Sequence record: OR776998
Direction: 5' to 3' (one strand)
DNA length: 64,000 bases
Source: Escherichia phage YX22
The notes below the pieces were generated by a model that was not told the origin of the DNA, did no database searches, and saw only the letters and a list, made by a program, of their open reading frames with translations. Position numbers and translations under genes: made by a program. Shown in pieces: positions 23,152 to 63,695 of this stretch (the stretch's first letter is position 1; each line of letters starts with the position of its first letter).

Positions 23152-23616
23152 TTATTCGCTTTTTGCCTTCGTAGGCCGGATGATGTATTTTGGAACCAGT
23201 TTCCATTCAGGAACCTGATCGTGTTTAACCACTTTAATGCGAGACATATCGGCTGCTTCAGTGACCTGCTCAGGATGAATGACCTTCACCATGTTCCACT
23301 GCTCCAGCAGCTTGATGATTCGGTTCATCCTCAGGACATCTTCGCGGTTAAATCCGTTGTAATGCCCGTCCAGCATAAATAGATGCTTGAAGTGGACGAT
23401 ATAATACTTGCCACACTTATGAAGAATATGGCAAGTCTGATACAGAGTATTCGGCTCTTGGCGCGTGTTTACCCCAATTCGACTCAGTGTTTCCTTGATC
23501 CCCAGGAATATACCTGGCCGATCTTGGTTCAATTGAACTTCAACCATACAATCAACGATGCTGGCCTCATCGTTGACTGCTGAAATATTCAATATGTCTA
23601 GCGTATTACGCGCCAT
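23152..23616 (-). CDS. regA: RegA translational repressor
   Basis: 154 aa; LYQTCHILHKCGKYYIVHFKHLFMLDG and C-terminal EWKLVPKYI match T4 RegA (LYQSCHILQKKGLYYIVHFKEMLRMDG ... EWKLVPKYTIGN); lies downstream of 62 as in T4. Confidence 0.9.
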   Translation of the reverse strand: MARNTLDILNISAVNDEASIVDCMVEVQLNQDRPGIFLGIKETLSRIGVNTRQEPNTLYQTCHILHKCGKYYIVHFKHLFMLDGHYNGFNREDVLRMNRIIKLLEQWNMVKVIHPEQVTEAADMSRIKVVKHDQVPEWKLVPKYIIRPTKAKSE

Positions 23617-24072: not shown

Positions 24073-25062
24073 TCACTTCCACTTGATGTTGAGCATGACA
24101 TTGGTCAGGAAAAACACAGCATGCAGCCAGACATCGCCGACTTGACGGTGTTCAATCTGAGACTGACCACATACGCATACTAGATCAGGGATAGACTCAT
24201 TCTGAACCAACATTTGCTTCTCTTTATCCTGTGGTACACAGAACTGGAAGAAGCGGGAATAGAAGTCTTCAGTGATATAGTTCTGGTTGTCGGTCACCCA
24301 CTGCTTCATCCCAGCCCAGTCATTATCCTTCAACATATTCACCAACATGCCCATATCGGCCGATTTTAACACAGCCAGTGCACGTTCGTCGATCTTGCCG
24401 TAAGTGGTGACGTTATCCTGTAGAACACCCATGATGCGGCGGTTATCAGGGAAATGGCGCTTGACAATAGCAGCCAACACAGGAGGGTCATACTCAACAC
24501 CTTCGCAGCGAAGGATTTCAGCACAGCGGCGCATGAACTGAAGTTTGACCTCATCAGCCTCGGTCTCATTCCAGATAAAGTCGATTTCACGGCAACGAGA
24601 GCGCAGAGGTTCGTTCACACGTTGCTTGGCGTTGGTGGTCAAGATGAATGAACAGTTCTTGGAGACCTTCTCCACAATACCCTTCAGCGACTCCTGTGCC
24701 GCCATAGACAGACGCTCTACTTCGTCGAGGATAACGACTTTGCGGCCACCGAATACGCTCACACCAGTAGAGTACTGAATCACGCGGTCACGGATAACGT
24801 CGATGCTGTTGTCCAGGGATGCGTTGATCATCAGTGGTTGCTTACAACCGATTTCATTACACACGGCCAGGGCGGAGGTAGTCTTGCCAGTACCAGGCTG
24901 AGGGGAGTAGAACAGCATAGACGGGATGTTGCCGTTGCCGCTGGTGATGTAGCCATGGATTTTAGCGCGGACGTCTTGAGGGATGATAATCTCGTCCAGG
25001 TTGTCAGGGCGGAAACGGTTCTCCCAGGCGTACTGGTCTTTTACAATCGTGATATTAGACAT
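24073..25062 (-). CDS. 44: Clamp-loader large subunit gp44 (AAA+ ATPase)
   Basis: 329 aa; Walker A SPQPGTGKTTSALAV; Walker B ILDEVE; its ATG overlaps the stop of the upstream homing endonuclease gene by 1 nt. Confidence 0.9.
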   Translation of the reverse strand: MSNITIVKDQYAWENRFRPDNLDEIIIPQDVRAKIHGYITSGNGNIPSMLFYSPQPGTGKTTSALAVCNEIGCKQPLMINASLDNSIDVIRDRVIQYSTGVSVFGGRKVVILDEVERLSMAAQESLKGIVEKVSKNCSFILTTNAKQRVNEPLRSRCREIDFIWNETEADEVKLQFMRRCAEILRCEGVEYDPPVLAAIVKRHFPDNRRIMGVLQDNVTTYGKIDERALAVLKSADMGMLVNMLKDNDWAGMKQWVTDNQNYITEDFYSRFFQFCVPQDKEKQMLVQNESIPDLVCVCGQSQIEHRQVGDVWLHAVFFLTNVMLNIKWK

Positions 25063-25718
25063 TATGTATTTCCATGATATAGTTTACAGAACAGAACCCA
25101 AGCGTCGTCATCATACGGGTTCCAGCCCTCTTTGAATTTGTTTAACATACTCGTTGCGGTGTTCTCTTTGATAGAGAACAAACGGGCAATTCTATGGCAC
25201 CCATCACCAGTAGAAACCCAGTGATCATACACTACCCCAGCCTTTAACCACATCGGTCTGGTGTTGTGTAGCAGCGCAGCCCCGGTGTCCCAGGGTTTTA
25301 TTCCTGCGGCGGGGTGGCTTTTACCAGTTCTTCCGTGCATGGGATGAAGATTCCCAGACTTACCCTTCAACCAACTCGAGACACCAACTCGGTGATGTTT
25401 GGGTCCCGCTGACCTACCGTTGGCGATACCACAACCCAGTGGCTGAAATGATTTGTTTAAACATTTTGGGTGATCAATGTTCTCACTAATCAACTGCTGC
25501 TCTCTCCAATATGCTTCTTCTGGGGAGTCAAACAGTTCTACGAATTCTACATCAAAGAAATCAGAACCTTTCTTAGATATGATTTCCTTGACTGTTTGTG
25601 AAGAAGTGAAATATGAAGTGAACAATTGTAAAGGATGTGCACCCAATTTCGTTCTAGAACCAAAATAGAAAGAACCATCCTTCCCTAACAAATGATATAC
25701 AAACGGTTGGTTCCTCAT
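25062..25718 (-). CDS. GIY-YIG family homing endonuclease (Seg-like), free-standing between genes 45 and 44
   Basis: ATG at 25718 preceded by GAGG (5-nt spacer); N-terminal PFVYHLLGKDGSFYFGSRT (GIY...YIG module); C-terminal basic G/K/H-rich repeats resembling NUMOD-like DNA-binding motifs; T4 has rpbA at this position. Confidence 0.65.
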   Translation of the reverse strand: MRNQPFVYHLLGKDGSFYFGSRTKLGAHPLQLFTSYFTSSQTVKEIISKKGSDFFDVEFVELFDSPEEAYWREQQLISENIDHPKCLNKSFQPLGCGIANGRSAGPKHHRVGVSSWLKGKSGNLHPMHGRTGKSHPAAGIKPWDTGAALLHNTRPMWLKAGVVYDHWVSTGDGCHRIARLFSIKENTATSMLNKFKEGWNPYDDDAWVLFCKLYHGNT

Positions 25719-25751
25719 TTCAGCCTCGTGTAGAAGAATCATTTCAAATAG

Positions 25752-25770
25752 GCGGGGAACGCCCCCGCCC
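25752..25770 (-). terminator. Hairpin between gene 45 and the homing endonuclease gene
   Basis: Stem GGCGGGG/CCCCGCC with 5-nt loop, followed on the minus strand by TATTTGAAATG; a TGcTATAAT-like -10 sequence sits just upstream on the minus strand (about 25775-25786). Confidence 0.5.
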
Positions 25771-25799
25771 ACACATTATAGCATCAGGCTGGAGATTGA

Positions 25800-26468
25800 T
25801 TACTCAATCTGTGCGCCGACGAAGTAATTGATCGTCGCGTCGGATGATTGGAAGTTCACCATCTGTAGATCAGCACATGCACGCAGAGTGTAGTTGCCTT
25901 CGATCATTTTCAGGTTGGCAACATCCAGCGGCATTACGAAGTCCGGCAGCGCGGTTTCGCCCAGCTCAACAGTGTAGTTGTTGGAGTTGTCCAGGGTAGT
26001 GGTGGTTGCAACCAGGCGTGTTTTGCCACCCTGAGCAACCAGGCGCACAGTCTTGTGTCCGAGGGTAGAACAGGCGCGGGTCAGTTCTTTCATCTTCTCT
26101 GGAGTGATGATCGCTTCAAAGTCGACAGACGGCAGCTCAATGGTGTCAGCCGGAACAACAGTGAGTTCTTTAGCAGAACGCCAGAATTGCAGCTGAGAAC
26201 TTTCGCCCTTCAACAGGATGTAGTCCTGATGGAATTCGGCTTTGGCACCTTTGAAGGAAGGTAGGCGCTGGATGGCCAGAAGTTTGGTCAGGTCCAGAAT
26301 CGGGAACTCAAACGGGAAGTCTTCTTCGATCTGCGCCACGGCGATCACAGTAGAAGAATCATTAATACTGCGCAGCATCTTGCCCGGTGTCAGAACGATA
26401 GATGGGTTGATGGTCTCAAAGTTGGCCAGCAACTGAAGTGTACGTTCGGAGAGAGTGATCTCTTGCAT
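25800..26468 (-). CDS. 45: Sliding clamp gp45
   Basis: 222 aa; begins MQEITLSERTLQLLANFETINPSIVL, parallel to T4 gp45 (MKLSKDTTALLKNFATINSGIML); length and position agree. Confidence 0.9.
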   Translation of the reverse strand: MQEITLSERTLQLLANFETINPSIVLTPGKMLRSINDSSTVIAVAQIEEDFPFEFPILDLTKLLAIQRLPSFKGAKAEFHQDYILLKGESSQLQFWRSAKELTVVPADTIELPSVDFEAIITPEKMKELTRACSTLGHKTVRLVAQGGKTRLVATTTTLDNSNNYTVELGETALPDFVMPLDVANLKMIEGNYTLRACADLQMVNFQSSDATINYFVGAQIE

Positions 26469-26578
26469 TTGTATGTATCCTCAAAATATAGTGGGGGTTC
26501 AAGTCATGTTTGACGAAATCTAGTATCGCTGTGTTTTGCTTATAGAACAAGTGGCAAATTGCGCTACGCGTTATTAAT

Positions 26579-26595
26579 AAATGCCTTCGGCATTT
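26579..26595. other. Small hairpin (AAATGCC-ttc-GGCATTT) in the gene 45 upstream region
   Basis: Perfect 7-bp inverted repeat in the AT-rich intergenic region. Confidence 0.4.
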
Positions 26596-26600
26596 ATGGA

Positions 26601-26650
26601 CTTTATTAAAGATAATAACCTTTATTAAAGATAATAATCTTTATTAATCC
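26601..26650. repeat. Tandem direct repeat, 19-bp unit CTTTATTAAAGATAATAA(C/T), about 2.6 copies
   Basis: Read directly: ctttattaaagataataac ctttattaaagataataat ctttattaatcc, inside the 360-bp AT-rich intergenic region upstream of gene 45. Confidence 0.8.
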
Positions 26651-26829
26651 TATTCGCTTCGCTCATAAAACAAATACTCGTTGTTCGCTAACGCTCACAA
26701 CTCGTATAATACCACGCCATTGTTCAACAAGAAAGCAGTTTTTATTCAACAGCAAAATTAATTTATTTGGTCTAAACATGCACGCGAAATAATATGTATG
26801 TCATGTTAACCAACACACGAGAGTAATAT

Positions 26830-27201
26830 ATGAAACAGTTCGTAGGATTATACGCAGTTGGGTGTAGTAAGCCAGACGCCAACCTCACCACAGGTCAATT
26901 TATCACAGGCACCCCAGTTTATCTGACACAGCTGGCGTCAGACAAGAACTTACCATCGGAGCCGCGATTTGTCCCCCTTGGCTTGATGACAGGCCTGAAA
27001 GTTGGTCTGTATGTTGGCGTTGTGACGTTTGATAACGGCATCGAAGCGAAGGTTCTGCCATTCCAATTGAACAGCGAACAAATGCTGAAGGATACGATCA
27101 GTGAACACCTGAACGCACAATGTCTGGCTTCTCTGGACAAATTGTTCGGTGTAGTAACTGATGAAGGCGAGGCCACCCCCGCCTATGTGAATCAAGATTA
27201 A
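26830..27201 (+). CDS. Hypothetical protein (plus strand)
   Basis: 123 aa ORF with ATG start and GAGAG upstream; convergent with uvsW; minus-strand ORFs over this span look like antisense artefacts. Confidence 0.5.
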   Translation: MKQFVGLYAVGCSKPDANLTTGQFITGTPVYLTQLASDKNLPSEPRFVPLGLMTGLKVGLYVGVVTFDNGIEAKVLPFQLNSEQMLKDTISEHLNAQCLASLDKLFGVVTDEGEATPAYVNQD

Positions 27202-28706
27202 TCGTGATTACCCAGCGCCACCTTCATGAACTCCACAGGGTGGCGCTCTGCCAGGTAAAACTTGTAACGCTCGTGAGAGTGCCTAAGAGCGTGGTTCGTG
27301 CTGGCGTTGTACGATGCATCATCCACTAAGTCCCATATCCACGCGACGTCCTTAGAGGAGTGCTGACGCATCAGACGACCCAATGTCTGTATGACGCGGA
27401 TATATGACTTGCTCGGGTGTGCCAGTACAAGGTGGTGTAGCTTCTTGATCGACACTCCCTGCTGCATTGTCCCGTATGATGCCAACAGGGTGATGTCCTC
27501 TCCATCCTCCATCGCTTTCTGTATGCGGCGGCGGTCTTCGATCTTTACTTCCCCGTTGATGACAAACACGTTGGGCTTGACCGCGCTCAGCATATCATAC
27601 ACGACCATCATGTGACCATCAATACGTTCGAACATGATGGCCACGTTTCCTTTCAGATTCAGTGCCATCTTGGCGATCAGTTCGTTGCGGGACTGGTGTG
27701 TGATAAGGTATTCTATTTCCTTGGAATAATCCCCGTCCAGACCAACAGCATCCGCCGGAGTGTGCTTCAGCTGGATCATCTTCACTTTGATGTCAGTGGC
27801 GTACCCGAGATTGATAAGATCGCGAGCCGTGATGATCTTATGGTACGCCCCGAAGTGAGCCACCACCTGAAGCCCGGCAACTTTGGTATTCGCCAGCGTA
27901 CCTGTAACCCCCAGGCGCTGGTCGGCATAGATGCAGTTGTTTAGGATGTAAGACAGTTTCTCAGACTTGGAGGTGTGCACTTCATCCACCACGATATCAC
28001 CGAACTGGTGGAACCATTCCTTCGGCTGGTCTTGAATGCCTTGCCATGTACTGATGACGATTGGTTTGCTGATATCCTTTGTCGCGCCCTCAAAAATCAG
28101 CTGGGTGTTAACAACGGGCTTCCAATCACTGCCATGTGCATACTCTTCGAAGTTGTCGTACAGCTGAGTGACTAGGTGGATTGACGGCACCACGATAAGC
28201 GTCTTCAGAGGACTTTCGAGAGCTTCTCTGCGCCGCCTGTAGTACCGCGCCATGACATACAGAATAAAGGACTTACCGGCACTCGTAGCCAGTTCACAGA
28301 CGCATCTGGTTTGACGCATAGCCTTGGCGATGGTGTCGTACTGGTAGTCACGAGTCTCGGCATCGATATATTCGTGATTTTCGGTGCGGATCTTTGGATG
28401 CAGACTGTCGATGAAGTCACGGATTTCTTCATCTGGGATGTCCTGAATGTACTTCAGTGCCGGATCCAGTTCAATGGTGTATCCGTTGTTCTTACAGAAC
28501 TTAAATACCTCAAACAGCAGACCGATATCGATTAGACCAGATGACTTGGTAAATAGGCGGACAACCCCGTCCCATTTAGAAAAGGGGTTGGGAACGAAGT
28601 TCGGGTCTTCGAATTTGAAGTAGTCATTAAGTTCTTCCCTGATAGAAAGATCTGCGATGCAACGCATGCGGACTTCGTTAACCTTAACAATCTGAATGTC
28701 TGCCAT
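27198..28706 (-). CDS. uvsW: UvsW-like SF2 DNA helicase
   Basis: Internal ATG at 28706 (MADIQIVKVNEVRM...); Walker A ELATSAGKSF; DEVH box VVDEVH; C-terminal WDLVDD as in T4 UvsW (WDLIDD); SD GGGAG 7 nt upstream. Confidence 0.85.
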   Translation of the reverse strand: MADIQIVKVNEVRMRCIADLSIREELNDYFKFEDPNFVPNPFSKWDGVVRLFTKSSGLIDIGLLFEVFKFCKNNGYTIELDPALKYIQDIPDEEIRDFIDSLHPKIRTENHEYIDAETRDYQYDTIAKAMRQTRCVCELATSAGKSFILYVMARYYRRRREALESPLKTLIVVPSIHLVTQLYDNFEEYAHGSDWKPVVNTQLIFEGATKDISKPIVISTWQGIQDQPKEWFHQFGDIVVDEVHTSKSEKLSYILNNCIYADQRLGVTGTLANTKVAGLQVVAHFGAYHKIITARDLINLGYATDIKVKMIQLKHTPADAVGLDGDYSKEIEYLITHQSRNELIAKMALNLKGNVAIMFERIDGHMMVVYDMLSAVKPNVFVINGEVKIEDRRRIQKAMEDGEDITLLASYGTMQQGVSIKKLHHLVLAHPSKSYIRVIQTLGRLMRQHSSKDVAWIWDLVDDASYNASTNHALRHSHERYKFYLAERHPVEFMKVALGNHD

Positions 28707-28725
28707 ACAAAATCTCCCAAGGATT

Positions 28726-28738
28726 ATGGGGTATTTAG
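28726..28738 (-). promoter_or_regulatory. Late-promoter-like element CACTAAATACCCCAT (minus strand)
   Basis: Variant of the T4 late core; about 25 nt upstream of the uvsW start (T4 uvsW is late-expressed). Confidence 0.5.
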
Positions 28739-29481
28739 TGATCCGGCCAGACTCCGTTTTGTTCTTTATCCATGCGATGATACAGACGAACACGCTCAAA
28801 CATCTTTGTCAGAATGTCATCACGGTTGAACTCAATGACGGTTGGTAGAGGGGAAGACTCGTTGGCGATCACGTTGATGAGGCGGGTGATCTTGACGCCG
28901 AACATCTGCTGGAACATGACCGAATATAAGCATAGCTGGATACTGTAATCCTCGATCATGCCCCGCGTCTTCATGGTGTTCGATGTCTTGAAGTCGATGA
29001 CAGCAGGTTTACCCTCATAAACCCCGATAAGGTCTACACGACCTGCAAGACCAAGCACCTCGCTATATAATGGGATCTCCTGAGCATAGATCTTTGTCAT
29101 CTTGTTCAGGTAAGGGAACAGCTGCTTGAACATGAACATGTATTCGCCAGCCGCTTCCAACACTTCTTTCATTGGGCGGTTCTTTAGATACAGTTCACAC
29201 GCAAGGTGCAGCTTCTCCCCTCGGTCAGCACAGCGCATGGTCTCAAGGTCAGCGGCCTCTGCGCCCAGCTTCTTCCTCCAAGACTCAAGCCATTCATGAT
29301 CTCCAGTGCGTCCCAGCATAGTCGTGACGGATGTCAGTTTTACACCAGACGGTGAAACGTAATGACGACCATTCTCCGTCGTAACACACTCCAGTTCCTT
29401 GTAAGGAAGTTCGTATTGCTGGAATGTGTAATGACGGTTTTCGAAGTCGTTCAGCTTGCGTAGATCTTGGAGGGATGCCAT
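28735..29481 (-). CDS. PD-(D/E)XK superfamily nuclease (RecB/Cas4-like fold)
   Basis: 248 aa; GRVDLIGVYEGKPAVIDFKTSN carries the D...E-x-K catalytic signature; lies between uvsY and uvsW. Confidence 0.5.
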   Translation of the reverse strand: MASLQDLRKLNDFENRHYTFQQYELPYKELECVTTENGRHYVSPSGVKLTSVTTMLGRTGDHEWLESWRKKLGAEAADLETMRCADRGEKLHLACELYLKNRPMKEVLEAAGEYMFMFKQLFPYLNKMTKIYAQEIPLYSEVLGLAGRVDLIGVYEGKPAVIDFKTSNTMKTRGMIEDYSIQLCLYSVMFQQMFGVKITRLINVIANESSPLPTVIEFNRDDILTKMFERVRLYHRMDKEQNGVWPDH

Positions 29482-37280: not shown

Positions 37281-37371
37281 GATGGTCATTCCTTACATTG
37301 ATATTCAGTTAAGTTGAAATTACTTAGTAGTTCAAAATCAAGCCCCCTTTCGAGGGCTGTGGCTGCTAAAA

Positions 37372-38223: not shown

Positions 38224-38250
38224 GATTGTTTCCTTCTGAACGATTTTCAG

Positions 38251-38258
38251 TATTTAGT
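38251..38258 (-). promoter_or_regulatory. Late-promoter-like element (CACTAAATACTG) upstream of gp22
   Basis: CTAAATA core about 28 nt upstream of the gp22 ATG. Confidence 0.4.
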
Positions 38259-38268
38259 GAGGCTGAAT

Positions 38269-41165: not shown

Positions 41166-41199
41166 GATTAAGTCCTCAACATTTTCTTGTAATTAGTGA

Positions 41200-41217
41200 G
41201 GGGGAATAAGATCCCCC
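41200..41217 (-). other. Hairpin between gp19 and gp20 (GGGGGA/TCCCCC stem)
   Basis: Read directly; no strong T-run, so more likely an RNA structural element than a terminator. Confidence 0.35.
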
Positions 41218-41230
41218 AGCACTGAGGACA

Positions 41231-44528: not shown

Positions 44529-46739
44529 TCACCGTCTCAGCCATTCTTCCATAGACATACCAGAGCGTTCATCATAAACCTGAATTCCACCGAACCCTGA
44601 GATGTTCTCCACAGAGTGAGGATCTGGCGTCGACATCATACCCCCAAATGGTAGCATCTGAGATTCTTCCATCGCAGACAACCGTCCTCTCATGTCCACA
44701 GAGATATTTGAATTGGTGAGATCACTAAACCATTCTTGTTTCACCGCCCATGCATACAACACGAGGGGCATTACACAGTCATCATGACAACCATCATCGG
44801 CTTCATACCTTGTTCCAGTCCATACGAATGTACTGAGTTCATCTATCGTGTCCTGGTCATCTATCACCAGCATTTCACGTTCAATCAGGGCTTTCAGGTT
44901 GGCACAGCCGTTTGTGCGCACCTTCTTGTTGGTATTGATACCAGGTTCAGGGCGGCGACCACCGATTCTCTTGCCTGTACCCTTGGTATCTGTTGTGGTG
45001 AAGATGATCTCTGGATATTCAATTTCTTGGTATAGAATTGTGATTACCTGACCACCCACGTCGTTGTTGGTCTCGACTAGCATCGGGCACGTTCCATACT
45101 TCTCACCCATATCGGCGATTGTGTACGCATACATCATTGGAGGTATCGTGTTATTTCGATACTTGGCTGCGATCTTGTGAGGATAGTCTGTGATGTCGAT
45201 AATGGTCAGCACAGAATAATCCCCTTCGACACCCTTGCCTGTATCTGCGATACCCATATAGATGCGCTTAGGATCGTAGTCGTGATAAATCTTGGTGAAC
45301 TCGTTCGGCTCCTGATACAGCTTCGAGGTCATCTTGTCCAGACACTTGGCAGGTATCAGTGATCCCACAGAACCACGGAACTTAATGCCAAATTCTTGAT
45401 CGAAACGTGCATCACCCAGCTTCGCCCTTTGTTTGGATTCCCAGTCTGGATCTTTGGTGTACGTTGGAACACGATACCATGGGACCTCGGTGAGTTTGAA
45501 GTCGTTGTATTGTGGGTGTTCTGGGTTCGCCTTGGTGACGATGTCGTAGAACAACCCGCGCTGACCTTTCGGCGTACTGGTCAGAATACAACGTGAAGTC
45601 TCTGCAGATGCAATCGCCGGGAATGTAGACTCCCAGAATTCAAAGTCGTTTTCAATGAACGCCACTTCGTCCACATACAGGAGCGATACAGATCGACCAC
45701 GGATGGAGTCGGAAGATGTCGCATAGGCGTAGATCTTTGATCCGTTTTCGAACTCTATCAGCGTGGAACCGAACTTCTCACAACCCTGTTGGAGGAAGAA
45801 TGGCAAATCTTGATATGCTTTGCGAATACGATCTAGGATTTCAATCGCCTGCTTCTCTTTGTTCGCCAGTACTGCGATCTCTTTGTCGGAGTGGAACATC
45901 GCATACCAGAGCAGGAACGCTGCCACGACAGTCGTGTTGTGGCTGAGGAAGCCGTTGGTGTAGTAGCGCTGATCACTAGATTTCACCTGTAGGTCATACA
46001 TGTGATGCGTCTCACCAGTCTGCCAAACCTCACGGATTTCTTCTGGACCTTCTGACGTCATGATGTATGACCCAGCATTCAGGTCTTTGGCAAATATCTC
46101 CTTCATTTCCGGAGTGAAGAATATATGTTCGTCGGCCACGTTAATTCGCCGCCCAGTAACAGTCACAATAACGAATTCCGCATATTTCTTCGTCTTATGC
46201 GCTGCGATAACCGGAACCCAGCCACTATCGGATTGCACAAAGTAACGTTTGCCGAAGCGGCTGTCCACGAACTTGTCATGGTTGCCAATGGTATTCAGCG
46301 GCACAGCGTGGTTGACGTCCTCGAAGCGGCTGTGAAGCTCCCCTATGGTCAGGAGCAACTGCTCTTGGCTGAGAGTATCGTAAACTGTGACAAGCGTGTC
46401 ACCTTTTACACATTTCCCAGACTGACGAGCCTGGACGACCGCATTGAATCGATAGTCCTGGAAGTCATGGAACAACTGCTTCTGGTAATCGTGCATGTCA
46501 AAGAGGATGAAGCCTTTATCGATGGTCGTGATCTTGTAGTAGTTGGCGGCGAAGTAATGGGCGTCCATCGCACACTCGACGAACTCCGATTCTTGTTCGT
46601 CGGTTAGCATCAACTCCACACGAGGTGCACGCACAGACGGCTTGCGCATGAACGTTTGGTCCATACGCAGTCTGACGTCTTCTGTCTTAAACCCCGTCTT
46701 GAGCGGGGCGTATTCTACATCACGCTTCTGATACGCCAT
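44529..46739 (-). CDS. 17: Terminase large subunit gp17, interrupted by a mini-intein
   Basis: Track ORF starts at GTG (46748); ATG at 46739 (MAYQKRDV...) with AAGGAAGAAGGTG upstream. Exteins join as ARQSGK|TTVVAAFLLW, matching T4 gp17 Walker A SRQLGKTTVVAIFLAHF; C-terminal nuclease region matches T4 (HDDCVMPLVLY versus HDDLVMSLVIF). Confidence 0.9.
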   Translation of the reverse strand: MAYQKRDVEYAPLKTGFKTEDVRLRMDQTFMRKPSVRAPRVELMLTDEQESEFVECAMDAHYFAANYYKITTIDKGFILFDMHDYQKQLFHDFQDYRFNAVVQARQSGKCVKGDTLVTVYDTLSQEQLLLTIGELHSRFEDVNHAVPLNTIGNHDKFVDSRFGKRYFVQSDSGWVPVIAAHKTKKYAEFVIVTVTGRRINVADEHIFFTPEMKEIFAKDLNAGSYIMTSEGPEEIREVWQTGETHHMYDLQVKSSDQRYYTNGFLSHNTTVVAAFLLWYAMFHSDKEIAVLANKEKQAIEILDRIRKAYQDLPFFLQQGCEKFGSTLIEFENGSKIYAYATSSDSIRGRSVSLLYVDEVAFIENDFEFWESTFPAIASAETSRCILTSTPKGQRGLFYDIVTKANPEHPQYNDFKLTEVPWYRVPTYTKDPDWESKQRAKLGDARFDQEFGIKFRGSVGSLIPAKCLDKMTSKLYQEPNEFTKIYHDYDPKRIYMGIADTGKGVEGDYSVLTIIDITDYPHKIAAKYRNNTIPPMMYAYTIADMGEKYGTCPMLVETNNDVGGQVITILYQEIEYPEIIFTTTDTKGTGKRIGGRRPEPGINTNKKVRTNGCANLKALIEREMLVIDDQDTIDELSTFVWTGTRYEADDGCHDDCVMPLVLYAWAVKQEWFSDLTNSNISVDMRGRLSAMEESQMLPFGGMMSTPDPHSVENISGFGGIQVYDERSGMSMEEWLRR
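45936..46412 (-). mobile_element. Mini-intein (159 aa, Hint domain only) inserted in the terminase Walker A motif
   Basis: Begins with Cys immediately after GK (CVKGDTLV...) and ends with HN before Thr (...GFLSHN|TTVV); block-B-like GRRINVADEHIFF; no endonuclease domain by length. Confidence 0.8.
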
Positions 46740-48778: not shown

Positions 48779-48799
48779 ATCGATACCCTCAATTTTGAA

Positions 48800-48810
48800 G
48801 GTATTTAGTC
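48800..48810 (-). promoter_or_regulatory. Late-promoter-like element (CGACTAAATACC) upstream of gp14
   Basis: CTAAATAC core about 25 nt upstream of the gp14 ATG. Confidence 0.45.
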
Positions 48811-48837
48811 GAAGTTTATTCTTTTGAGGAATAGCTC

Positions 48838-60229: not shown

Positions 60230-60293
60230 AGAGGATTTGCCAATATGGGGTATTTAGTCTGAACTAATAAATTTATGAACAAAGGTATAACAA
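60218..60293. repeat. Repeated promoter cassette (copy 1), about 75 bp
   Basis: Near-identical to 63597-63672: ...ccaatatggggtatttag(t/g)ctgaactaataaatttatgaacaaaggtataacaag; contains the late-promoter core and a 9-bp inverted repeat ATACCCCAT/ATGGGGTAT spanning the tailspike start codon. Confidence 0.8.
60245..60257 (-). promoter_or_regulatory. Late-promoter-like element CAGACTAAATACCCCAT
   Basis: About 20 nt upstream of the tailspike ATG at 60229. Confidence 0.5.
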
Positions 60294-63593: not shown

Positions 63594-63596
63594 GAT

Positions 63597-63672
63597 AATA
63601 CCCCATAAAGGATGACCAATATGGGGTATTTAGGCTGAACTAATAAATTTATGAACAAAGGTATAACAAGAA
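63597..63672. repeat. Repeated promoter cassette (copy 2)
   Basis: Near-identical to 60218-60293; here the small plus ORF is reduced to a 33-codon remnant running into a hairpin. Confidence 0.8.
63621..63633 (-). promoter_or_regulatory. Late-promoter-like element CAGCCTAAATACCCCAT
   Basis: About 30 nt upstream of the tailspike ATG at 63593. Confidence 0.5.
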
Positions 63673-63695
63673 CCCTGCCGAAGAGGGGGTTAGTT

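Follow-up and report, generated by a model that had tools for sequence, protein, structure and literature searches.

The intergenic region between gp45 and orf123

The 64,000-nucleotide stretch of Escherichia phage YX22 analysed here (sequence record OR776998; hereafter the window) comes, judged by its sequence, from an Agtrevirus-like phage of the Ackermannviridae, the family of ViI-like relatives of T4. Our subject is the intergenic gap at positions 26469-26829 (361 nt, GC content 0.33, no strand assigned), which separates the sliding clamp gene gp45 (25800-26468, minus strand) on its left from a 123-aa open reading frame (ORF), orf123 (26830-27201, plus strand), on its right. It is the largest intergenic region of the window, the runner-up measuring 202 nt in our crude ORF map, and a preliminary description that had singled it out as an AT-rich control region beside gene 45 holds in that respect. 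Across the 1.4 kb surrounding the gap, sequence identity is 98.6% with Escherichia phages PC3 and PH4 and 90-98% with other Aglimvirinae, comprising Agtrevirus (Ag3, SKML-39, AV101) and Limestonevirus (Dickeya phages), and a homologous gap is present in 273 Ackermannviridae records. In the complete 154.8-kb genome of a close relative, phage RPN242 (OL656110.1), the 300-bp segment of lowest GC content (0.323) falls in this homologous gap.

Replication genes surround the gap (gp45, gp44/62, uvsW and uvsY), and orf123 converges with the uvsW helicase gene (27198-28799, minus). Nearly all genes of the window other than orf123 lie on the minus strand; as an isolated plus-strand unit among them, orf123 requires a promoter of its own. 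We read the gap as a divergent transcription-control region that acts at the DNA level and serves gp45 leftward and orf123 rightward, an interpretation that the sequence comparisons below lead us to favour modestly.

Candidate promoters on both flanks

On the gp45 side, a candidate promoter occupies 26522-26550 of the minus strand, with a -35 hexamer TTGTTC (26550-26545), a 17-nt spacer and a -10 hexamer GATACT (26527-26522), from which transcription would start near 26515. Both hexamers and their 17-nt spacing are invariant in Aglimvirinae, Kuttervirus and Taipeivirus and the middle of the spacer is variable; fixed hexamers at fixed spacing around a free spacer argue for a sigma-70-type footprint. 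At the matching place, Miltonvirus has a near-consensus TTGTCA-17-TATAAT. Downstream, the minus-strand block at 26478-26521, a conserved putative 5' leader and translation-initiation region, holds the inverted repeat GTCAAACATGAC, an ACTATAT element (26492-26486) and the Shine-Dalgarno sequence GAGGA (26482-26478). RNAalifold predicts 15 weak base pairs for this leader, with no compensatory change. The ACTATAT element had been pointed out earlier as lying near the gp45 start; it is there, beside the Shine-Dalgarno sequence, and finds no support as a recurring motif. We rejected it as a promoter motif: the minus strand carries 7 copies against about 4 expected, 3 of which are ACTATATCATG (ACTATATC-ATG) start contexts. 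A homolog of the translational repressor RegA (PF01818, E = 2e-34) is encoded at 23152-23616 on the minus strand, directly downstream of gp62 as in T4. The T4 RegA protein acts on the ribosome-binding sites of genes 44 and 45 to repress them, and by analogy the leader block at 26478-26521 is a possible RegA operator.

On the orf123 side, the candidate promoter lies on the plus strand at 26681-26710 and comprises TTGTTC (26681-26686), an 18-nt spacer and TATAAT (26705-26710); this is the TATAAT box that the preliminary description had placed at about 26711. Aglimvirinae, Kuttervirus and Taipeivirus all retain the pattern TTG(T/C)TC-17/18-TATA(A/T/G)T, and the distance from the -10 to the orf123 ATG is held at about 118-120 nt. 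Transcription would begin near 26717 and produce a leader of about 113 nt. In both candidates the hexamers stand 17±1 nt apart, the spacing of sigma-70 promoters. Shortly after the predicted start (about +3 to +13) comes an invariant, operator-like near-palindrome, TTGTTCAACAA (26720-26730, plus), followed by GGTCTAAAC (26769-26777, plus), whose TCTAAAC is invariant in all genera aligned, and by the ribosome-binding region and start of orf123 (26819-26832, plus), with GAGAG at 26819-26823 and the start codon at 26830. RNAalifold returns 0 pairs for this leader. As a recurrent promoter class, TTGYTC-N17-TAnnnT is not enriched in RPN242. The element GGTCTAAAC resembles, and does not match, the late-promoter-like motif of the family, CTAAATAC; a sigma-E or late-promoter reading of it was discarded for want of a matching -35 and of a CTAAATAC match.

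In Salmonella phages Se-I, Se-H, Se-J and Se-N, the gap is a composite, Kuttervirus-like in its left half and, from the -10 onward, Aglimvirinae-like in its right half. By this alignment, recombination has joined the two types within the conserved promoter block.

The 19-bp tandem repeat and the question of an origin

Between the two flanks lies a variable A/T-rich spacer (26598-26646) that houses the tandem repeat CTTTATTAAAGATAATAA(C/T) at 26601-26647 (no strand). Tandem Repeats Finder reports a period of 19, 2.5 copies and 96% matches. The longest exact run at this period measures 18; runs in 2000 dinucleotide shuffles never exceeded 12. The repeat is real, as had been described, with the earlier count of 2.6 copies revised to 2.5 and the span to the one given here. 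The alignment of gaps gives 2.5 copies for the window, 3.5 for A221 and 1.5 for AV101, Ag3 and LIMEstone1, the last in the form CTTTATTAA-AGATAATAAY-CTTTATTAA in all three phages. Across a survey of 50 Aglimvirinae-type records, gap lengths fall into classes of about 342, 361 and 381 nt, each a 19-bp step from the next. A single genome carries 3.5 copies, the six GenBank genomes closest to the window and one IMG/VR contig carry 2.5, and all remaining records (about 40), every Dickeya phage included, carry 1.5. This variation between 1.5, 2.5 and 3.5 copies occurs among phages that are at least 90% identical.

From the alignment, we take the ancestral state to be a single unit bounded by the 9-bp direct repeat CTTTATTAA, 19 bp apart. 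A unit flanked by short direct repeats is a classic substrate for replication slippage, and both marks of slippage of the variable-number tandem repeat (VNTR) type are seen here, namely a unit between short direct repeats and a copy number that varies among close relatives. The comparative evidence identifies the 19-bp repeat as a lineage-specific slipped-strand duplication in a filler tract. Over five genera, no part of the gap is less conserved than the repeat tract, which scores 0.30-0.32 on a four-clade identity measure versus 0.67-0.85 for 26650-26710, and other genera carry unrelated A/T-rich sequence in its place, sometimes with local repeats of their own. With 19 or 38 bp added, the flanks lie further apart and in a different helical phase relative to each other; they must therefore act independently.

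The preliminary description had raised iteron-like repeats, and with them a replication origin, as one explanation of the gap, and had proposed a comparison with related phages. That comparison went against the repeats, and the iteron and origin part of the proposal finds no support; the other part, a divergent promoter region or regulatory hub, stands on promoter-like footprints conserved family-wide and on the leaders of both flanks. An origin could be of the iteron type, with an initiator bound to the 19-bp repeats, or of the T4 type, in which the transcript of a conserved promoter would form an R-loop in the neighbouring A/T-rich unwinding element and the three paralogous gaps would serve as several origins, and we regard either as improbable. 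The setting is suggestive: the gap sits among gp45, gp44/62, uvsW and uvsY, contains the lowest-GC 300 bp of a 154.8-kb genome and so offers A/T-rich sequence for unwinding, and has conserved promoter-like blocks abutting its A/T-rich tract. It also shares a layout of CGCG island, hairpin, A/T tract and conserved block (block A, below) with two other loci, which recalls the several promoter-plus-unwinding-element origins of T4. The repeats themselves argue otherwise, the 19-bp unit being unconserved outside one lineage and most relatives having 1.5 copies, and an iteron origin's three or more conserved initiator sites were not found. Searches of the gap for DnaA, IHF and Fis sites gave no matches even with one mismatch, where 1.1-1.2 are expected by chance. 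The cumulative GC skew of RPN242 turns only at about 23 and 131 kb, at gene-strand switches, and that of the window falls monotonically with no inflection at the gap. Among the neighbours (gp45, uvsW and orf123) there is no recognisable initiator gene, and orf123 has no known fold. For the T4 type in particular, one of the paralogous loci (locus 3, below) has an A/T tract of only about 20 nt, free of hairpins, in several genera; the family is without the MotA/AsiA machinery that T4 origin promoters use; and the gap yielded neither TGCTTYA nor an identified promoter firing into the A/T tract. We still allow the T4-type origin its small probability, because such origins leave no stronger sequence signature.

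The hairpin between the candidate promoters

The spacer is preceded by the hairpin ATAAATGCC-TTC-GGCATTTAT (26577-26597, plus), a perfect 9-bp stem with the loop TTC, which extends the 7-bp stem at 26579-26595 noted in the preliminary description. Its folding energy is -9.3 kcal/mol (z = -2.9), and a perfect stem of at least 9 bp arises in 1.9% of shuffles of the region. Only 3 of the 9 bp are G-C pairs. A-rich sequence lies 5' of the stem and T-rich sequence 3' of it, the plus-strand tail having 5 T in 8, with interrupted U-tracts. In a terminator scan, the hairpin was picked up as terminator-like on the plus strand. Read along the minus strand, it is the first structure of this kind to follow uvsW, and the proposed gp45 -35 comes about 27 nt further downstream. 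The 3' ends of uvsW and orf123 overlap by 4 nt, so there is no space for a terminator between these convergent genes. Kuttervirus has the identical stem with the loop TGAC. By its sequence and fold, the hairpin resembles a weak intrinsic terminator, possibly one that works bidirectionally. To its left lies the CGCG island CGCTACGCG (26562-26570, plus); an island of the CTCGCGCG type occupies the corresponding place in other genera and at the paralogous locus 3.

A non-coding cassette at three loci

The orf123 side of the gap contains three blocks with relatives elsewhere in the genome: block A, ATCCTATTCGCTTCGCTCATAAAAC (26647-26671, plus); block C, ATACTCGTTGTTCGCTAACGCTCACAACTCG (26674-26704, plus), where conservation within the gap is highest; and block D, AGAAAGCAGTTTTTA (26730-26744, plus). 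Block A has paralogous copies in two further gaps, which we call locus 2 (between gp26, ORF060, and gp5; RPN242 44898-45260, 363 nt, minus) and locus 3 (at the main strand switch, between gp6 and orf218, which opens the rightward block of genes; RPN242 132740-133105, 366 nt). Block C has a counterpart in locus 3, as does block D, there in the form AGAAA(A)G(T/C)AGTTTTTA, and a fourth block, B, is found at loci 2 and 3, so that the composition is A+C+D in the window gap, A+B at locus 2 and A+B+C+D at locus 3. All three loci adjoin the start of an oppositely oriented gene (gp45, gp5 and gp6, respectively) and are conserved in about 270 records; block A has matches at three places per genome in Miltonvirus and at two in Erwinia phages.

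At locus 2 of RPN242, block A is identical to the window copy at 24 of 25 bases, and at locus 3 it is either intact or interrupted by a small hairpin. Its sequence changes in step across loci within each genus, reading CTATTCGC..GCTCAT in Aglimvirinae, CTACTCGC..GCTCGT in Kuttervirus and CAACTCGC..GCTCGT in Taipeivirus, which suggests that the copies either share a trans-acting partner or undergo gene conversion with one another. In several cases the sequence upstream of A has a common layout of CGCG island, hairpin and T-rich tract, in which the stems differ yet stay complementary (AAATGCC/GGCATTT, GGAAGC/GCTTCC, GGATGC/GCATCC and GGCGGC/GCCGCC). Blocks A and C together have the highest YTCG density in the 64-kb window, five in 64 nt, and the plus strand of this core is C-rich and G-poor (18 C versus 7 G). 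When the collection was scanned with the 14-mer CTCGCTTCGCTCGT, most hits were chance matches and the result gave no information.

At locus 2, about 230 nt of conserved non-coding sequence follow block A, beginning with block B and ending in a GC-rich terminator, with no ORF, although some records annotate tiny ORFs there. The locus looks like a candidate small RNA (sRNA) gene, conserved in Aglimvirinae, Kuttervirus and Taipeivirus. At locus 3, the RPN242 gap is 91-95% identical to Kuttervirus and only about 79% identical to Ag3-like Agtrevirus, which suggests recombination between subfamilies at that locus.

Observations of this kind bear on whether the conserved blocks act as RNA, with A, (B), C and D forming an sRNA or 5'-leader family transcribed from a promoter upstream of A. 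In a variant of this reading, the left part of the gap (26499 to about 26605) would itself be a plus-strand sRNA of about 100 nt, running from TTGCAT-18-TATAGT to the hairpin. Block B speaks for it: at loci 2 and 3 this block folds into two covarying hairpins, in which 98.6% of cells are paired and both partners have changed in 4 of 9 pairs, and its covariation score was equalled by 0 of 500 shuffles, although the independent events are few and fall partly between paralogs. The GC-rich terminator about 230 nt after A at locus 2, where no downstream ORF exists, points the same way, as do the T-rich tract that follows the window hairpin on the plus strand, the score of 8.9 for TTGCAT-18-TATAGT and the C-rich, G-poor composition of the core. 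The window copy, however, lacks block B. RNAalifold gives the orf123 leader no pairs and the left block weak stems without covariation, and no convincing promoter was seen upstream of A. Searches against Rfam 15 found no hit in 25500-27800 at E up to 5 and chance-level hits only at loci 2 and 3, that is, no match at any of the three. With these points set against each other, we hold this RNA reading of the blocks to be unlikely.

A different activity has been annotated for the same blocks. The record of Dickeya phage LIMEstone1 marks a 'putative middle promoter' here, chosen by its similarity to T4, and would make the region a T4-type, MotA-dependent middle promoter with a GCT(T) 'MotA box' in block A and the -10 TAATAC, which corresponds to AAATAC at 26672-26677 of the window. 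The window has GCTT at 26656-26659, 13 nt upstream of the first base of AATACT (26673-26678), a -10-like sequence, at a spacing close to that of T4 middle promoters. The motif TGCTTYA is absent from the gap, and at locus 2 block A has no TAnnnT at the required distance. Moreover, Kutter et al. report that ViI-like phages are without MotA, AsiA, Alt and ModA (PMC3184105); the reported absence of MotA and AsiA refutes membership in this promoter class, and we give the MotA reading almost no credence.

We propose, tentatively, that the A/C/D core is one copy of a modular, family-wide non-coding cassette present two to three times per genome, and maybe a prereplicative control element of ViI-like phages. 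Every copy lies at a divergence point, adjoining the 5' end of a late or a replication gene. Such a cassette could be an array of sites, or a structured RNA, for a phage factor that does the job of MotA and AsiA; alternatively, it would mark the multiple replication origins of the family.

A model of the region and its standing

We return to the divergent control region for gp45 and orf123. In our model, two back-to-back promoters of the sigma-70 type would be read by host RNA polymerase, each followed by a conserved and unstructured leader. The A/T-rich spacer between them would open with the weak hairpin and T-tract, most likely an intrinsic terminator that insulates the two units; on the plus strand, this terminator-like hairpin precedes the orf123 cassette. 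The 19-bp iterons are the product of recent slippage of one unit between the 9-bp CTTTATTAA repeats, and we treat the tract as filler, not as initiator sites, because anything from 1.5 to 3.5 copies is tolerated. Blocks A, C and D would build the orf123 promoter region and, because they recur in two other divergent gaps, probably carry sites for a common factor that co-regulates the three divergent units. We prefer this DNA-level model because the window copy is without block B, no consensus fold emerges and a conserved -10 is well placed.

Several observations weigh against it. The candidate promoters are not outstanding by score: with a position weight matrix (PWM), the orf123 candidate reaches 10.5, about rank 29 of 241 window hits, and the gp45 candidate a low 6.3. 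Each -35 matches the consensus at TTG only, and the promoter tool's own scan listed neither candidate. The spacer of the orf123 promoter, CTCACAACTCG, is conserved beyond expectation for a plain sigma-70 spacer, and at locus 3 block C has no directly adjoining -10, a TAnnAT following 13 nt further on. The recurrence of a conserved spacer at locus 3 without an adjoining -10 means that block C does more than set a distance. At -9.3 kcal/mol, the hairpin falls short of the terminators that the phage Ag3 paper lists (-10.4 to -22.9 kcal/mol), and Taipeivirus lacks it, having a weak A/T palindrome in its place (-2.8 kcal/mol). That paper lists no promoter and no terminator in this gap, and the literature we searched holds no transcription start, termination or binding data for Ackermannviridae and no transcriptome.

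Conservation relative to phage Vi01 is a further point on that side. Over window positions 1-50000, other intergenic gaps are 84-100% identical to Vi01 and genes 73-86%, and this gap is 80% identical. The aligned part of the gap is 0.88 similar to Vi01, compared with 0.76 for gp45 overall and 0.52 at its third codon positions. We had considered conservation above that of synonymous sites to be a special property of the gap and dropped this view, since most intergenic gaps are equally or more conserved in the Vi01 control. On these alignments, we take conservation to show that the blocks are functional, and the gap is not exceptional. In the same comparison, many gaps are better conserved across subfamilies than their flanking genes; for instance, the segment that precedes the major capsid gene (37290-37371) shows 100% identity to Vi01, and 41166-41230 shows 97%.

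Scans of the gap for CRP sites, the T4 late motif TATAAATA, the late-like motif of the family CTAAATAC and MotA boxes gave nothing above chance. Two further resemblances were discarded: a lambda boxA/boxB (nut-like) reading of CGCTCATAAAACAA, which is lost in other genera, and a lac-operator-like half-site, GCTCACAA, a 9-nt match at chance level.

Neighbouring genes and late-promoter-like motifs

The product of orf123 belongs to a protein family confined to Ackermannviridae (phrog_4255) and has no Pfam hit. Its ends are invariant, with the N-terminus MKQFVGLYAVG and the C-terminal tail EGEATPAYVNQ, and an AlphaFold2 model (predicted local distance difference test score, pLDDT, 79.7) matched no fold beyond its own family. 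The protein also has a conserved motif, [ST][LIM][DG]x[LIMV]FG (here SLDKLFG at aa 101-107), that resembles the clamp-binding motif of T4, present as SLDFLFG at the C-terminal end of gp43 and as LDFLF in T4 ligase (PMC6212786). By this analogy, orf123 may encode a clamp-binding protein, divergently from the clamp gene itself.

The longest ORF of uvsW has 533 aa and a TTG start, about 30 codons beyond the annotated 502-aa UvsW (1509 nt) of relatives, so the true start probably lies internal to it. Between gp45 and gp44, a minus-strand ORF at 25062-25772 encodes a homing endonuclease of 236 aa, GIY-YIG/Seg-like (phrog_314, E = 6e-17). RPN242, Ag3, A221, AV101 and Vi01 lack this insertion, and their gp45 and gp44 are about 80 nt apart.

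The motif (A/C)CTAAATAC recurs just upstream of structural genes, on the minus strand in the gaps at 38224-38268, 48779-48837, 60230-60274 and 63594-63695, and in the form CATAAATAC upstream of gp5 (RPN242 about 45205). It is likely, from this placement, to be the late-promoter consensus of the family. The coding strand of the window does not contain the canonical T4 late motif TATAAATA, and the paper on phage CBA120 stated the late consensus to be unidentified.

Implications and comparison with known systems

The repeat marks no origin, and its iteron-like units are a harmless variant, which spares an origin-mapping effort at this site; their copy number could serve as a strain-typing marker among Agtrevirus-like phages of E. 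coli. More broadly, the region bears on a question open since 2011, namely which promoters ViI-like phages use at divergence points when they are without the early and middle regulators of T4. To that question the gap contributes two phylogenetically footprinted promoter candidates and a conserved cassette in three copies. Phages of this kind are used in biocontrol (of Dickeya, Salmonella and E. coli O157), and knowledge of their control elements helps engineering.

Set beside iteron origins such as lambda ori and those of plasmids, the gap has the same direct tandem arrangement of a 19-bp unit in A/T-rich non-coding DNA next to replication genes; lambda ori consists of four 19-bp sites for the O protein and an A/T-rich region. 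Here, however, the copy number ranges from 1.5 to 3.5, the unit is absent in other genera, and neither a cognate initiator gene nor host-factor sites accompany it. VNTR-type slipped-strand duplications in intergenic DNA of phages and bacteria share the bounding short repeats, the stepwise copy differences and the lack of conservation beyond the lineage, and we noted no difference between them and the 19-bp repeat. At oriF and oriG of T4, a middle promoter and a downstream unwinding element support R-loop priming, and the R-loop is unwound by UvsW. Our gap likewise places promoter-like blocks by the most A/T-rich tract, beside uvsW and uvsY, at one of several loci per genome; it differs in the lack of MotA and AsiA, and the likeness is one of sequence. 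Bidirectional intrinsic terminators have the same perfect hairpin between an A-tract and a T-tract, kept as a structure despite differences in loop and stem, whereas the hairpin here has only 3 G-C pairs, a folding energy of -9.3 kcal/mol and interrupted U-tracts and is missing in Taipeivirus.

The divergent sigma-70 regions of T4-like phages offer the same opposed -35/-10 pairs with 17-18-nt spacers, an A/T-rich middle and conserved leaders, and they likewise serve a replication gene and a small early-type gene. The present gap departs from them in -35 hexamers that match only TTG and in a conserved spacer and upstream blocks that are repeated at two other loci. The region is ordinary in kind, and its core belongs to a previously undescribed multi-copy cassette.

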